Shown in pieces: positions 6,510-51,185 of a stretch of 51,185 nt of DNA. The position numbers and the translations under genes are program-made. Each line of letters starts with the position of its first letter. Within the stretch, counting starts at the first letter, position 1. The stretch covers positions 8,507-59,691 of the forward strand of contig CAZOFP010000002.1 of the NCBI GenBank assembly GCA_964579475.1, written 5' to 3'. The notes beneath the pieces are model-generated. The model searched no databases. It saw only the letters and a program-made list of their open reading frames with translations, and was not told the DNA's origin. Source of the DNA: an uncultured Candidatus Saccharibacteria bacterium. Its GTDB lineage: Bacteria; Patescibacteriota; Saccharimonadia; Saccharimonadales; CAYOYH01.

Positions 6510-8609
6510 TCACTCTTCTGAGCCGAATGCCTCGTCGAGACTACTGATAAGAACTTCGCGCGGTCTTGAACCTTTGGCTGGGCCGACAATTCCAGCTTCT
6601 TCCATGTAATCGATTAAACGCGCTGCGCGGCCGTAGCCGACTCTTAGGCGCCTCTGTAGCAACGATGCTGAGGCTTTGCCGCTCTCAACAACAACTCTGA
6701 CAGCGTCTTTATACAAGCTATCGTCTGCACCATCGCTAGCACCAGCTATGCCACCACCGCCAGGCATCTGTACTGGCTGCGTAACCACTTCTTCGTCGTA
6801 TTCAGGAGCGCTCTGCATTCGGATGTGATTTGTTACGGCGTCGACTTCGTTCTCATCTATAAACGCACCTTGGATACGTTTAGGCTTGGGTAGTCTTGGC
6901 GTCATAAATAGCATATCCCCCTGCCCCAGAAGTTTCTCAGCGCCGCCTTGGTCAAGTATGGTTCGTGAGTCGACTTGTTGCGCCACCGTAAAAGCAATTC
7001 GAGCAGGTATGTTAGCTTTGATTAATCCAGTTATTACGTCTACAGAAGGCCGTTGCGTTGCTAGAACCAAGTGAATACCCACCGCACGGGATTTCTGCGC
7101 CAAACGAACGATAAGGGCTTCTACGTCGCGAGCTGCAACACTCATTAGGTCTGCTAGCTCATCGATAACGATTACGATATAAGGCATGCCTTCTTCTTTT
7201 TTGAGTTTGTTGTAGGCGCCAATATTCCTCTTGCCGGCTTCTGAAAGCTTGTCGTATCGGCGTTCCATTTCTGCGACTGCCCATTTTAACGCTGAGATAC
7301 ATCTGTCCGGCTCTGTAATCACAGGCGTTAGCAGGTGAGGCATACCGTCATATAGTTTCAGCTCAACTTGCTTAGGGTCCACTAGTATCAACTTTAGATC
7401 TGCGGGTGAGTTGCGGTATAAAAAACTGGTCAGAAGCGTATTAATCATGACAGATTTACCAGAACCGGTGGCTCCAGCAATAAGTAAATGCGGCATATTA
7501 TCGAGATCAGCAATAACCGGCTCTCCGGCAATATCTTTGCCGACAGTAAATGCTAGTGGCGACCCCTCTGCGTCCCACTGCTTAGAACTGAGGAGCGAGT
7601 GCATTCGAACTGTCGCAGCTTTAACATTAGGAACCTCTATGCCAACTGCTTTCTTGCCTGGTATTGGCGCCTCGATACGAATATTTGAAGCCGCTAAATT
7701 AAGTGCAATATTGCTCTCAAGCGCAGTTATCTTAGACAGACGAACCCCGCTTGGTGGCTGAAGGGTGTACTGGGTGACTTTCGGGCCAACGTTGGCACCC
7801 TCCATGTTCACTTCAATATTGAAATCTTGAAGTGTGCTTTTGATTATGTCGGCATTGTTGTTGATGTCACCAGGGTCTGCCTTATCTTGTTTGTCGTTCA
7901 GCAAATCAAGCCCTGGTAGTTTCCAGTTCGGATCAGCCAATGTCGTTAGTGCTTTACCGCTAACTTCTTTTTTCTTTTCTTTGCTGCCGCCTTTTTGAAT
8001 AGGCACACCTTCATTTAGCTTAAACTCGCCCTTGGCTGGCGTTTCAGCCTTCGCAGTTTGCAAGTCTCCCTCGATGACTTTGGTTTTTCCAATGCCAAAT
8101 TTTGCAAGTAAATCTTTGAACGAAACTTTGAATATAAAAAGCGTCGACAAGATTATGATGAACAGCAAAACTAATACTGCTAGTGGCGTAATTAGCACAC
8201 TGTCAATAACTCCACCCAGTAGTCCCCCGAAGATGCCGCCCGCTGAATCATTGTTTGTCGAAAAGACTTCCTGCAGCGCACCGATTGAGCTAAGCAACAA
8301 GAACATTCCAAAATACACCCTAGCTTGCAGGCGATGATTTTCGCTTTTGAACAGACGAAGCGCCATGACTGCCAGAATAATCGGCACGAAAATTGCTCCT
8401 GCACCGAAAAGATACGAAGCGGCATCTGAAAGCGCTACTGGAAGTGTGCCACCAATGCCCAGTAAGCCTAGAGCAATAAGCGGTGCAACTATCAGACCAA
8501 GCAACACAGACAGTGCCTGAGGCCAAAAACCCGAGGGTAAGTCATGCGTGGAGTCAGTGGCCTTAGATTCTTTGGTTGACTTCTTTTTTGATTTTTTCTT
8601 CTTAGCCAT
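6510..8609 (-). CDS. ftsK: DNA translocase FtsK
   Basis: N-terminal TM segments, PHLLIAGATGSGKS, LILVDPK, IDELADLM, ATQRPSVDVITG, gamma domain LQRRLRVGYGRAARL. Confidence 0.97.
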   Translation of the reverse strand: MAKKKKSKKKSTKESKATDSTHDLPSGFWPQALSVLLGLIVAPLIALGLLGIGGTLPVALSDAASYLFGAGAIFVPIILAVMALRLFKSENHRLQARVYFGMFLLLSSIGALQEVFSTNNDSAGGIFGGLLGGVIDSVLITPLAVLVLLFIIILSTLFIFKVSFKDLLAKFGIGKTKVIEGDLQTAKAETPAKGEFKLNEGVPIQKGGSKEKKKEVSGKALTTLADPNWKLPGLDLLNDKQDKADPGDINNNADIIKSTLQDFNIEVNMEGANVGPKVTQYTLQPPSGVRLSKITALESNIALNLAASNIRIEAPIPGKKAVGIEVPNVKAATVRMHSLLSSKQWDAEGSPLAFTVGKDIAGEPVIADLDNMPHLLIAGATGSGKSVMINTLLTSFLYRNSPADLKLILVDPKQVELKLYDGMPHLLTPVITEPDRCISALKWAVAEMERRYDKLSEAGKRNIGAYNKLKKEEGMPYIVIVIDELADLMSVAARDVEALIVRLAQKSRAVGIHLVLATQRPSVDVITGLIKANIPARIAFTVAQQVDSRTILDQGGAEKLLGQGDMLFMTPRLPKPKRIQGAFIDENEVDAVTNHIRMQSAPEYDEEVVTQPVQMPGGGGIAGASDGADDSLYKDAVRVVVESGKASASLLQRRLRVGYGRAARLIDYMEEAGIVGPAKGSRPREVLISSLDEAFGSEE

Positions 8610-47593: not shown

Positions 47594-49288
47594 CTACATC
47601 CCCATCATTCCGCCGCCCATGCCACCACCAGCCGGCATAGCAGGCGCTTCTTTTTCGGGAATATCTACTACTAACGTACCCATGGTCATAGCTGTACCGG
47701 CAATCGATACGGCATTTTGAATTGCTTCTCGCACTACTCGTGTTGGATCAACAATTCCTGCCTTTTTCATATTAACAACTTTACCCGTAGAAACGTCAAC
47801 ACCGTTACCAGGATTATTAAGTACTTCTATGATGTATCCGCTCGCATTAAGGTCGGCGTTATCTAATAAGTGCTTAAACGGCTCGCTTAAAGCTCTTATC
47901 AATATGTCTACGCCTGCGTCACCAGTTATCATCGATTTGTTATTAGCAATTAGCTCAACAGAATCCTCGTTTTTCCCTTTGAGATGCTTGTTGACAAGCA
48001 CCATGCTCAATCCTACCTGCGTGACGCCTCCTCCAGGAACAATTCCTTCATCCAGCGCAGCTTTAACAGCTGCTACTGCATCGTCGACTCGAAATTTCTT
48101 TTCTTCGATTTCGGTTTCAGTGGCTCCACCAACTTTTATTACAGCAACTTTACCGCTTAGAGCAGCACGTCGTTTATCGAGGTTTTCTTTGTCGTATTCA
48201 CTAGTAGCTTGCTCGGCCTGAGCGCTAATCTGCTTAATACGGGCGTCGAGTTCACTAACTCCCCCAGCGCCTTCGATGATCGTTGTGTCGTCTTTAGTCA
48301 CAATAACCTTCCGCGCAGTACCCAGCATGTCCAGTGTTGCATTCTCGAAACTATGCCCCTGATCTTCAGAAATCACGGTAGCTCCTGTCAAAATGGCTAT
48401 ATCTTGCAGTACATCTTTGCGGCGGTCACCAAAGGCCGGAGCCTTGACTGCCACGGTGTTAAACACGCCTTTTAGTTTATTGAGCACTAGAGTTCCAAGT
48501 GCTTCACCTTCAACGTCTTCAGCAACAATCACCAAGTCTTTCTTACCAGCCTGAGCTGCTTGTTCTAGAATTGGCAGAAAATCTTGGACAGCCGAAATCT
48601 TCTTATCAGTTACCAAAATTAACGGCTTCTCATATGCAGCTTCCATTCGGGCTGCGTCGGTAACCATGTATGGGCTGACGAAGCCACGATCCATAGTAAA
48701 GCCTTCGACGACTTCACTCTCTAGCTCAAGTCCCTGCCCCTCCTCGACAGTCACCACGCCGTCTTTGCCAACCTTATGGATAACATCAGCGATTAGTTTG
48801 CCGATAATCTCGTCACCCGCCGAAATGGTTGCTACTTCAGCCACTCTTTTGCTATCGCCACCAATATCTTCAGACATGGTGGTTAGTTTCTTTAATACGT
48901 CGGCTCCAGCAGCTTCAACGCCTTTGCGTAGTTCCATTGGGTTGTGACCAGCTGCAATCAGTTTGTTAGCTTCATTTAGGATGTGGTAAGTCAAAACTGT
49001 AACAGTAGTCGTACCATCTCCAGCTACATCGTTCATTTTATTTGCGGCTTGTTTAATCAGCTCCGCTCCAACGCTATAACCTAAGGTTTCGTCATCGTCT
49101 TCAGGTAGCTCTATCGCCTTGGCGACTGTCACGCCGTCGTGGGTAACAGTTGGGCCGCCATAAGATTTACTAATTACTGCGTTGCGGCCCTTCGGGCCCA
49201 TGGTTACTTTTACTGCATCGTAGAGCGCCTGAGCCCCGCCAAGTACGCGAGTGCGAGCGTCTTCGTCATAAAATACTTTCTTTGCCAT
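47594..49288 (-). CDS. groL: Chaperonin GroEL
   Basis: TMGPKGRN, AGDGTTT, KAPAFGDRRK, GIVPGGG, GGM tail. Confidence 0.98.
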   Translation of the reverse strand: MAKKVFYDEDARTRVLGGAQALYDAVKVTMGPKGRNAVISKSYGGPTVTHDGVTVAKAIELPEDDDETLGYSVGAELIKQAANKMNDVAGDGTTTVTVLTYHILNEANKLIAAGHNPMELRKGVEAAGADVLKKLTTMSEDIGGDSKRVAEVATISAGDEIIGKLIADVIHKVGKDGVVTVEEGQGLELESEVVEGFTMDRGFVSPYMVTDAARMEAAYEKPLILVTDKKISAVQDFLPILEQAAQAGKKDLVIVAEDVEGEALGTLVLNKLKGVFNTVAVKAPAFGDRRKDVLQDIAILTGATVISEDQGHSFENATLDMLGTARKVIVTKDDTTIIEGAGGVSELDARIKQISAQAEQATSEYDKENLDKRRAALSGKVAVIKVGGATETEIEEKKFRVDDAVAAVKAALDEGIVPGGGVTQVGLSMVLVNKHLKGKNEDSVELIANNKSMITGDAGVDILIRALSEPFKHLLDNADLNASGYIIEVLNNPGNGVDVSTGKVVNMKKAGIVDPTRVVREAIQNAVSIAGTAMTMGTLVVDIPEKEAPAMPAGGGMGGGMMGM

Positions 49289-49315: not shown

Positions 49316-49371
49316 CTAATTCTCATTTTTCAATTTTCATTTTTTGGAAACTGAAAACTGCAACTGTTAAC
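49316..49371. repeat. Inverted pair of degenerate heptamer arrays between groES and groEL
   Basis: ctaattc tcatttt tcaattt tcatttt / tggaaac tgaaaac tgcaac tgttaac. Confidence 0.55.
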
Positions 49372-49633
49372 TAACAGTTGCTAAGATGTCTTCTTCTTTG
49401 ACTAATATATACTCGGTGCCGTCAATTTTTACTTCTGTGGTTGAGTACTCTTTATAAAGAATCTTCTCACCTTTTTTCAAGGTTTTAACATCCTTGCCGA
49501 CAGCTAAAACTGTGGCAACTTTTGATTTTTCTTTAGCATTGTCTGGCAGATACAGTCCGGAAGCTGTCTTGGCTTCGGTCTTTAGCCCTTCGGCTACTAC
49601 CCAATCTGCTAGGGGGTTAATGTTTAAGCCCAT
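49367..49633 (-). CDS. groS: Co-chaperonin GroES
   Basis: INPLADWVV, KTASGLYLPD, VLAVG, EEDILA; GGAGG RBS before ATG 49633. Confidence 0.96.
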   Translation of the reverse strand: MGLNINPLADWVVAEGLKTEAKTASGLYLPDNAKEKSKVATVLAVGKDVKTLKKGEKILYKEYSTTEVKIDGTEYILVKEEDILATVS

Positions 49634-49667
49634 ACGTTCCTCCAAAAATTATTATTCTTGCCCAAAC

Positions 49668-49703
49668 AATTATAAATTAGCACTCTCATACGTCAAGTGC
49701 TAA
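49668..49703 (-). promoter_or_regulatory. CIRCE (HrcA operator, 49677-49703) overlapping the groES sigma70 promoter
   Basis: TTAGCACTC-N9-AAGTGCTAA (1 mismatch to consensus); on the - strand TTGACG-16-TATAAT. Confidence 0.92.
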
Positions 49704-49800
49704 TTTACTCTTTTGCCACTCAAAGCTAGGCTTGCTGTGTCAAATATACCGCCTATGACTTCTTGCGGGGCAACTGGCTTATCAGCCGGAACCGGGTGAA

Positions 49801-50238
49801 TTATGATAGGGCCGGCTTTAACAGTTCTTCCATTTTTTCGTCGTAGTTATTAACAAGTAAAGCAACTCTCGACAAATAGCTGCCGTTCTCTCCAATAACC
49901 TCCTCAAGAACTACCTCATATCTTTTGTCTGATGTTGCTCGAGCTATCCCAATGTCTGCTAGGTTTATGCTGTTGGCGACTTTCTGTGATGGTTGTGTAA
50001 CTTCAACTCTTAACGTGTACTTGTTCTGAGTTCCCTCTTCAGTTTCTTTCTGATTGCGCCGAAAACTGTACTTTAAACTTGAGTTTCTTCCTCCGCTAGG
50101 AGTAATTGCAAAGGTCGGAAACACGTTCTGATGCACTTCTTGTTTAGTCAGCCGCTTCGAAAACACTCCGAGCAAAGCCTCGTAGAACTGATTCCACGGC
50201 GTGAATGTCTCAACTTCTTTACTTTCTGGTCCAGTCAT
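49801..50238 (-). CDS. Hypothetical protein
   Basis: 145-aa ORF; no motif recognised. Confidence 0.7.
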   Translation of the reverse strand: MTGPESKEVETFTPWNQFYEALLGVFSKRLTKQEVHQNVFPTFAITPSGGRNSSLKYSFRRNQKETEEGTQNKYTLRVEVTQPSQKVANSINLADIGIARATSDKRYEVVLEEVIGENGSYLSRVALLVNNYDEKMEELLKPALS

Positions 50239-50306
50239 GACATTGATAGTATACCAATACTATATCTATCAGAACATGTTTCTGGACATATTCGCAATTT
50301 AATTGC

Positions 50307-50335
50307 TTGACATTTATGCTTACTCCTAGTACTGT
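50307..50335 (+). promoter_or_regulatory. Sigma70-type promoter P1
   Basis: TTGACA(50307-12)-17 bp-TACTGT(50330-35). Confidence 0.6.
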
Positions 50336-50340
50336 TACAG

Positions 50341-50795
50341 CCCGAAATCGAACCTTTGATGTCGGTTGGTCACAATAGATGTAGTGCGCGCTAAAGTGTT
50401 TATGCACTCACAGTGCATCTAGTGAAGTCCGTACTAAACCCGACCTAATGGTCGCAAGCATCGATTGAACATTAAGTTTTGAATTCCTGGGAGAGGTGGT
50501 TCCAAGGGGCCTCCCTCAGGAGCGCTGGCGAGAGACTCTGCGGTCTCATTGACCTGGCGTGGCTGCCGATTGCGGTAACACCGTGACTTACACTTAGCGA
50601 ATATCGTTTCCTCTCGAGGAGCGAACACTCGCCCAACAGTCACAGTCGTAATCGGCAGCCCATTCTTGTTTCCTTCCTATGTGATTTATTCGTTTATCGC
50701 ACGCCCCGAAGTAGAAACAAGCATCACATCTCGAGTAGTAGCTCATAACCTCACTCCCACACTTTATGACTACACCACTACTCGAGATTTTTCTT
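50341..50795 (+). ncRNA. Candidate structured non-coding RNA, family unknown
   Basis: ORF-free on +; multiple stems including a ~100-nt nested rod at 50560-50660; bounded by promoter P1 and a T-tailed hairpin. Confidence 0.5.
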
Positions 50796-50796
50796 T
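50728..50796 (+). terminator. Long hairpin with T-tract
   Basis: atctcgagtagt / actactcgagat perfect 12-bp IR plus inner tcataa/ttatga, followed by ttttcttt. Confidence 0.6.
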
Positions 50797-50823
50797 GACA
50801 TTATTCGATTAAAGTTGTACATT
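50795..50823 (+). promoter_or_regulatory. Sigma70-type promoter P2
   Basis: TTGACA(50795-800)-17 bp-TACATT(50818-23). Confidence 0.6.
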
Positions 50824-51053
50824 AGCGTTTAAGTGAAGGTACTTAAGTCTCAAGTAGAGCTTTGCTTTCGCACATTCACAAACAAAGGAGATAATCATCG
50901 ACAGGAGACCTTACAAGTCTCCCGACAAAGTGACTCGTAGACGTTTGAATTTCCGAAAGGAAGTCGTGCGTTTGAAACGGGTACTCGGCAGTAAATCTGT
51001 CCCGAAAGCCGACTGGATTCGGTAGAAAAAACCCTACCGAGAGAGGAAAACCC

Positions 51054-51185
51054 TTGGAACTATGCACAGTCGAGTATCTTCTTGATGACGGCACAATCAT
51101 TGTCGTATCAGGAGGAAAAGCAAAACCTGTGACACCTTCCGCAGAGGCGGAAGACAAGAGTTCAATCGACGACCCTAGCGCAGAT
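51054..51185 (+). CDS. Start of a hypothetical protein (MELCTVEYLLDDGTIIVVSGGKAKPV...), truncated by window edge
   Basis: TTG start 6 nt after GAGAGGA; frame open to the end; the - ORF 50876-51157 is partly its shadow. Confidence 0.5.
   Translation, partial: MELCTVEYLLDDGTIIVVSGGKAKPVTPSAEAEDKSSIDDPSAD

Follow-up and report, generated by a model that had tools for sequence, protein, structure and literature searches.

The DNA between groES and a small orphan ORF in an uncultured Saccharibacteria genome may hold a species-specific noncoding transcription unit on the + strand, which would run from a promoter-like site (P1) to a U-tailed hairpin, with termination abutting a second promoter-like site (P2). 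We put this interpretation forward tentatively, giving it slightly less than an even chance. A sigma-70-type P1 would start an RNA at ~50342 that contains no translatable frame. The 5′ 220 nt of the RNA would be only loosely structured, while its 3′ part would fold into a rod of 35 bp, a small hairpin and a hairpin of ~20 bp followed by UUUUUCUUU. Most transcripts would end at ~50796, yielding an RNA of ~455 nt, and P2 would drive a 225-nt leader together with two translationally coupled ORFs, ORF A (55 aa) and ORF B (99 aa). We infer that the RNA could be released as a stable, 3′-structured small RNA and that its transcription and termination could affect the amount of polymerase that reaches or occludes P2, and thereby the expression of ORF A and ORF B. 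The noncoding unit is favoured because the stretch lacks an ORF or a known family, folds with a strong z-score, lies in a genome where its promoter motif is enriched in gene-free DNA, ends in a U-tailed hairpin and forms more G-U pairs on the + strand. It is weakened by the lack of conservation, by a −10 box of P1 that agrees with the consensus at only half of its positions and by 5′ stems near chance. A rod that is at least as good on the − strand, the frequency of strong z-scores among ORF-free stretches of this genome and a neighbouring segment that is GC-rich as well also count against it.

The DNA analysed (the window, 51,185 nt in all) corresponds to positions 8507–59691 of contig C2 in a genome (G000) of 872,510 bases that is assembled in 25 contigs and 98% complete. 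The closest relatives of its GroEL are found in metagenome-assembled genomes of Saccharibacteria/Saccharimonadales (66–75% identity). The window ends at a scaffold gap, represented by a run of 100 N, and two metagenome contigs of the same sequence (L020 and L021) bridge it with a true gap of 308 nt. Annotation of the genes beyond the window, proposed in the preliminary description of this DNA, was thus possible, and it added ORF B, a possible 102-aa frame, a 174-aa gene and a dimethylargininase-like gene (Table 1). The stretch is present in four metagenome DNA runs from three studies, whose contigs show no difference over 49539–51185; among the public runs, no RNA run was listed for it. Elsewhere in the genome, scaffold N runs lie inside the ORF-free stretches C2:7549–9312, C2:58766–59829, C5:32763–34390 and C10:15116–15973. 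A separate local fold signal was seen on both strands directly upstream of groES (49651–49800, z −3.2 and −3.0), which we presume could be a CIRCE-type heat-shock operator palindrome.

Table 1. Features of the candidate RNA locus and its surroundings, in window coordinates unless another sequence is named.
Feature	Position	Strand	Remarks
groEL	47594–49288	−	
groES	49367–49645	−	
145-aa orphan gene	49801–50238	−	divergent from the candidate RNA; from the ORF list
Gene-free interval	50239–51053		815 nt, between the start of the 145-aa gene and the TTG of ORF A
P1, promoter-like	50307–50335	+	TTGACA (50307–50312), 17-nt spacer, TACTGT (50330–50335)
5′ half of the putative transcript	50342–50560	+	weakly structured, z −2.22
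Rod	50561–50661	either	101 nt, 35 base pairs, 14-pair outer stem; inverted repeat I5
AU-rich hairpin	50665–50722	+	between rod and terminator-like hairpin; z −3.35
Terminator-like hairpin	50728–50796	+	perfect 12-bp outer stem and inner stem, then UUUUUCUUU; z −6.99
P2, promoter-like	50795–50823	+	TTGACA, 17-nt spacer, TACATT; 10 of 12 consensus positions; found by the consensus scan
Putative 5′ leader of ORF A	50830–51053	+	~225 nt; fold z −2.29, 3 of 200 shuffles equal
ORF A	51054–51185, running 33 nt beyond the window end	+	TTG start, 55 aa
ORF B	L021 1634–1930 (− strand of L021), in the scaffold gap	+ in window orientation	99 aa; ATG overlaps the stop of ORF A
Possible convergent frame	beyond ORF B, before the 174-aa gene		102 aa
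174-aa gene	beyond ORF B and the 102-aa frame	−	own promoter-like site and hairpin terminator
Dimethylargininase-like gene	beyond the 174-aa gene	+	NCBIfam E 2e-63, under the curated cut-off

About 800 bp of this region had been described as devoid of a convincing gene, and the description is accurate: the longest start-codon ORF within the gene-free interval has 69 aa. The stretch also resembles no RNA family, as had been concluded by eye from the missing signature motifs. At gathering score, Rfam has no match in it, the sole match of the window being a tRNA elsewhere, and a search of 50150–51185 with 4227 families at E≤10 returned two junk matches only (E 1.6 and 10). RNase P RNA and tmRNA are both encoded on another contig, C20.

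The stretch was then assessed for folding. On the + strand, the 455 nt at 50341–50795 reach −155.9 kcal/mol with a z-score of −5.49 (0 of 100 shuffles equal), against a z of −3.04 on the − strand. Block shuffles (3, 5 and 9 blocks), which control for the local rise in GC content, gave z-scores of −6.5, −5.4 and −6.6 on the + strand and about −3.6 on the − strand, and thus agree that the stretch is heavily base-paired, as first proposed. Two known RNAs of the same genome served as positive controls and scored similarly (RNase P RNA, z −6.14; tmRNA, z −5.42); 42 random 455-nt segments averaged −0.88, and the 3 of them at −5 or below all fell on ORF-free stretches. The GC peak of the stretch (0.55) lies between the 95th (0.52) and the 99th percentile (0.555) of 200-nt genome windows, confirming that it is GC-richer. 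Because the adjacent part of the islet is likewise GC-rich (0.575), this rise may stem from a foreign origin rather than from RNA structure. Moreover, when the 27 largest ORF-free stretches without N were folded (15 shuffles each), 10 reached a z-score of −5 or below on some strand; 4 of these hold rRNA, tRNAs, tmRNA or a group I intron, and 6 hold no known RNA or nearly none. A z of −5.5 is therefore shared by a whole group of stretches here, does not single out a unique object and is no proof of function by itself.

Where does the fold signal come from? When elements were folded separately, it was traced to the rod (50559–50663, z −6.91 on the + strand, 0 of 200 shuffles equal; −5.39 on the − strand) and to the U-tailed hairpin (50726–50798, z −6.99 on the + strand, 0 of 200 shuffles equal; −4.99 on the − strand). 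The small hairpin between them (50663–50727) was matched by 1 of 200 shuffles on the + strand. The 5′ half (50341–50560) is weak, with 2 of 200 shuffles equal on the + strand and a z of −1.29 on the − strand, and it forms 12 G-U pairs on the + strand against 4 on the − strand. The stretch is thus not a chain of equal stems. The successive stems listed in the preliminary description all exist, but three of the four small ones in the 5′ half are near chance level when folded alone: z was −1.56 for 50376–50424 (13 of 200 shuffles equal), −0.96 for 50484–50523 (40 of 200; −0.75 on the − strand) and −2.16 for 50522–50560 (8 of 200), all on the + strand unless noted. The nested rod of ~100 nt is as described; its largest internal loop measures 8 by 5 nt, leaving no large central bubble. 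The outer arms of the U-tailed hairpin form a 12-nt inverted repeat (I8) of 100% complementarity. A consensus terminator scan made no calls in the stretch; it missed this hairpin because its loop exceeds the 8-nt limit of the scan.

The + strand is the better reading, because it has the stronger z-scores, forms 19 G-U pairs over the whole stretch against 12 on the − strand and alone carries a U-tract 3′ of the terminator-like hairpin, and also because of the promoter motif discussed below. A + strand RNA had been proposed on other grounds, namely that the mismatches of the rod are G-U wobbles only on that strand. This argument fails because the rod is more stable on the − strand (−50.3 kcal/mol, against −45.0 on the + strand) and has more G-U pairs there (4 against 2). 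The choice of strand therefore stands, but the reason first given for it does not.

P1 had been singled out as a TTGACA-17-TACTGT promoter. We searched the whole genome for the corresponding class, TTGACA-N16–18-TANNNT, and found 48 sites, 24 of them in the ORF-free fraction, defined as the 9.1% of the genome that lies outside any 90-codon frame. Among 179 control motifs made by permuting the −35 hexamer, the mean was 23.2 hits, with 3.4 in ORF-free DNA and a maximum of 12. The class is thus enriched ~7-fold in ORF-free DNA; many hits precede an ORF by 20–130 nt, and one stands ~230 nt before the 5′ end of 16S. These distributions indicate that the motif is a real promoter signature in this genome. 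Because the class is so strongly enriched in gene-free DNA, both P1 and P2, which are two of the 24 ORF-free sites, are probably real promoters. The motif reported for P1 is therefore present and belongs to an enriched class, but its −10 box agrees with the consensus at 3 of 6 positions only, and P1 went unreported in the consensus scan. The distance from P1 to the next + strand ORF of at least 60 aa is 719 nt, which fits a noncoding transcript. At the other end, the −35 box of P2 starts where the U-tract of the hairpin ends.

Is the stretch conserved? A blastn search with 50300–51185 found no match in the other genome of the family, which belongs to the same genus, and six matches of 23–40 nt in 400 other genomes of the order (E 0.001–0.007, one of them in an unpublished genome, G342), none of which is real. 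Of the homologues that had been suggested for covariation analysis, these genomes of the order yielded none, and the only copies obtained, from metagenomes, are identical. A covariance model of the rod (R1) likewise recognized a single copy in G000 and none in 150 other genomes of the order. As a control of sensitivity, the same blastn procedure was run with RNase P RNA, which it recovered in 138 of 151 genomes, counting the unpublished genome G033. Because the stretch is absent from the same-genus genome while RNase P RNA is found this widely, it does not behave as a housekeeping RNA and appears to be a non-conserved, accessory element.

The genomic slot that holds the stretch is variable as well. 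In 18 of 80 relatives, a dimethylargininase-like gene stands divergently upstream of groES, and the spacer of 0.5–2.3 kb between them carries unrelated genes; in the same-genus genome, the slot holds a different ORF of 172 aa and no structure signal (z +1.07). From these comparisons, the slot between groES and the dimethylargininase-like gene is lineage-variable. In the same-genus genome, the dimethylargininase-like match itself (G001:C22:649–1004, L022) lies at a contig start and falls into four pieces that use different frames and include one TGA, so that the gene may be broken or the assembly wrong here.

These results bear directly on the most serious alternative, that the stretch is the nonfunctional spacer of a recently acquired or decaying islet, without a dedicated RNA gene, in which the two long hairpins would be left over from earlier use or would simply insulate or terminate, the remainder folding by chance. 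The lack of conservation even within the genus, the orphan status of all neighbouring genes and the unrelated contents of the slot in relatives are what a spacer would show, as are 5′ stems at chance level and a z-score that 10 of 27 large ORF-free stretches attain. A spacer, however, would not be expected to carry two sites of the enriched promoter class whose order and strand both suit the U-tailed hairpin, and the + strand is favoured in z-score under four null models. Nor is there an upstream + strand gene for the hairpins to terminate, and the − strand provides no U-tail. We consider the spacer unlikely, though it is a possibility to be taken seriously.

Alternatively, the stretch could be a long cis-acting leader: transcripts from P1 would be attenuated at the U-tailed hairpin and would read through into ORF A and ORF B upon a signal, as in a riboswitch or attenuator, while P2 would provide basal expression. 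The order of promoter, structured RNA, terminator and ORFs on one strand suits such a leader. So does the heptamer TCTCGAG, which occurs in the apex of the rod and in both arms of the terminator; with 90% complementarity (I18), the apex could pair with the 3′ arm instead. These three copies are part of eight in the window, against 5.35 expected, and the heptamer is thus not enriched. Moreover, no riboswitch, T-box or leader family matched at E≤10, P2 provides a separate good promoter after the terminator, and there is no conservation against which an aptamer could be judged. An attenuated leader is, on this evidence, improbable.

What might ORF A, ORF B and their neighbours contribute? The 145-aa protein has no Pfam family, was found in its own genome only among 61 genomes and had no match but itself in a search of 5.8 billion proteins. 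Neither ORF A nor ORF B could be placed in a Pfam, PADLOC or PHROGs family, and ORF A gave one sub-threshold NCBIfam line (E 0.05); the neighbours as a whole have no Pfam, PADLOC, NCBIfam or PHROGs family of note. AlphaFold2 models of the 145-aa protein and ORF B were unusable (pLDDT 44 and 43), and the best scores in a protein atlas (0.81 and 0.91) came with low recognition and gave no lead. No reverse-transcriptase domain, which a retron or another reverse-transcriptase-associated RNA would have beside it, was found in the neighbours or in six-frame pieces. The sole relative of ORF B in 1.84 billion representative proteins is P0003 (48% identity), and a HMMER search with alignment A1 returned only P0002 and P0003, plus two repetitive chance matches. 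The 174-aa protein also has one relative (P0005/P0006, 72% identity). Because P0003 and P0006 both lie on contigs, the longest of which has 4920 nt, a related islet probably exists in another organism. Further searches for homologues gave nothing: queries of IMG/VR with three proteins (145-aa, 174-aa and ORF B) and alignment A1 were negative, searches of GTDB species genomes with P0003 and alignments A1 and A3 gave a single chance match of 18 residues, and alignment A1 had no match in 401 genomes of the order, where G000 itself went unmatched because ORF B lies in the N gap.

Two observations concern the region between P2 and ORF A. A possible frame with a perfect AAGGAG (50885–50890) placed 6 nt before an ATC at 50897 runs for 43 very basic codons to a stop at 51025, or for 31 codons if counted from a GTG at 50930; it has no family in Pfam or PHROGs. 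In addition, 50499–50508, at the apex of the 50486–50521 hairpin, is a perfect 10-nt complement of the start of ORF A (51051–51060). An antisense action on the ORF A start was considered and dropped, because 19.5% of 3000 random genome windows equal the energy of its best duplex (−36.9 kcal/mol).

The preliminary description had offered, as one outcome, the RNA part of a system whose protein starts at 51054. What starts there is a 55-aa orphan coupled to a 99-aa orphan, neither of them assignable to a Pfam, PADLOC, NCBIfam or PHROGs family, and such a protein partner thus finds no backing. In a related form, the ~455-nt RNA could be the RNA component of a so far unseen RNA–protein module with ORF A and ORF B, possibly including the 145-aa orphan, which would occupy the variable slot next to groES and would be shared with at least one related organism (P0003, P0006). 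We regard such a module as a long shot. Of the broader proposal, that the stretch is a new or strongly diverged noncoding RNA, the part that stands is an ORF-free, strongly paired stretch outside the Rfam families; the diverged housekeeping RNA and the system protein do not.

The hairpins might also act in DNA, as a single-strand origin or a recombination site, for example, of an integrated mobile element. Both strands fold well (z −6.9/−5.4 for the rod and −7.0/−5.0 for the 3′ hairpin), the stretch sits in an islet of orphan genes missing from relatives, and the assembly broke beside it. The neighbours, however, include no replication, integrase or transposase family, blastn against phage records and the IMG/VR searches gave no match, and the stretch is single-copy in G000. 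Iterons and tandem repeats are lacking: Tandem Repeats Finder returned no rows for the stretch, which contains only two-copy direct repeats of 10–15 nt. A DNA-level element therefore seems quite unlikely. A replication origin was rejected, the nearest DnaA box being at 48775, outside the stretch; a CRISPR-like array or a TIGR-like one (TIGR-Tas; PMC12045711) was rejected for want of repeats in the stretch.

That the stretch is a protein gene which has decayed or uses an unusual code, or several very small genes, is less probable still. An orphan micro-ORF would be compatible with the protein searches, and one minus-strand frame extends over 80 codons from stop to stop. Against this, none of the 22 stop-to-stop frames of the stretch matched Pfam below E 0.1 and none of 5 frames tested matched PHROGs. 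Reading the sequence of 50342–50796 by eye, we saw no combination of a Shine-Dalgarno motif and a start codon. An alternative genetic code was ruled out: code 25 opens no longer frame, and its best, of 122 aa, requires three TGA read-throughs.

A last question is whether the stretch is a housekeeping RNA in disguise, since no SRP RNA (RF00169, RF01854) was found in G000 even at E≤10, nor in the stretch. This absence says nothing about the locus, because RF00169 was undetected in all 31 genomes of the order (G000 and 30 relatives), while the same search succeeds in 12–13 of 14 control genomes; either the SRP RNA of the lineage is too diverged for the Rfam models or it was missed by the first-look filter. 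A strongly diverged 6S-like or SRP RNA, although 6S is seen only weakly and elsewhere in the genome (28.7 bits, against a threshold of 46.4), is the least credible reading, given that the stretch matches neither model at E≤10, that its rod has only 101 nt and that such an RNA would be expected in the same-genus genome, where RNase P RNA retains 79% identity and the stretch is absent.

Returning to the noncoding transcription unit, we note that the genome offers other candidates of the same kind. The ORF-free stretch G000:C3:935–1695 (L029 200–960) starts at a TTGACA-N17-TAGGAT, reaches a z of about −4.9 on the + strand and has no Rfam match at E≤0.01; it lies between a gene that is presumably DprA-like, judging from its residues, and the next gene. 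This stretch is conserved: the same genus has 565 nt of it at 80% identity, and 14 other genomes of the order, counting the unpublished G033, have segments of 50–130 nt. As a candidate for a conserved unknown RNA, it is preferable to the stretch beside groES. Six more large ORF-free stretches reach a z of −5 or below on at least one strand, down to −8.5 (C1:55642–56096, C16:7367–7821, C21:10871–11325, C3:38652–39106, C3:13343–13797 and C5:5276–5730); none has an Rfam match at E≤0.01 except for one tRNA at the edge of the C1 stretch. On contig C8 (L037 184–451), a group I intron (67.8 bits) adjoins a weak tRNA match, and the pair is probably an intron-containing tRNA gene.

Saccharibacteria are episymbionts with minimal genomes, and to our knowledge their accessory, strain-specific functions are essentially unknown. 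If transcribed, the candidate would be among the very few candidate regulatory RNAs described for this group of the CPR. We found no relevant account of CPR noncoding RNAs, or of SRP RNA, in the literature accessible to us. The candidate itself is of limited practical value: it is not conserved and has no partner of known function. The by-products of the analysis are more useful, namely (i) the promoter motif of the genome, (ii) the other structured, Rfam-negative stretches, one of them conserved in the genus, and (iii) the observation that SRP RNA goes undetected in 31 genomes.

How does the candidate compare with known RNAs and systems? 6S RNA is a rod of about 150–200 nt (about 180 nt) with a large central bubble, and it binds RNA polymerase holoenzyme. 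The candidate shares with it (RF00013) a rod-like fold and a promoter-to-terminator layout, but its rod is 101 nt long, with an 8 by 5 nt loop as the largest, and is not conserved. The 6S model has no match at E≤10 in 50150–51185. The proposal of a strongly diverged 6S-like RNA thus fails on the missing model match, on the short rod without a central bubble and on the absence from the same genus.

In type III toxin–antitoxin systems of the ToxIN-like kind, a promoter, a noncoding RNA, a terminator and a downstream ORF follow each other on one strand. The candidate locus has this arrangement, yet it lacks the tandem direct repeats that form the antitoxin RNA, and neither ORF A nor ORF B matches a family of toxins or defence proteins. 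The large orphan noncoding RNAs of Rfam (OLE, ROOL, GOLLD, raiA and HEARO) are, like the candidate, long and highly structured bacterial RNAs; they are defined by conservation and covariation, whereas the candidate is not conserved and matches no Rfam family. Compared with a generic small RNA gene, consisting of a sigma-70 promoter and an intrinsic terminator, the candidate is long at ~455 nt and has no homologues and no supported target. It resembles such a gene in its promoter-like site, its lack of an ORF, its structured 3′ end and its hairpin and U-tract on the same strand.
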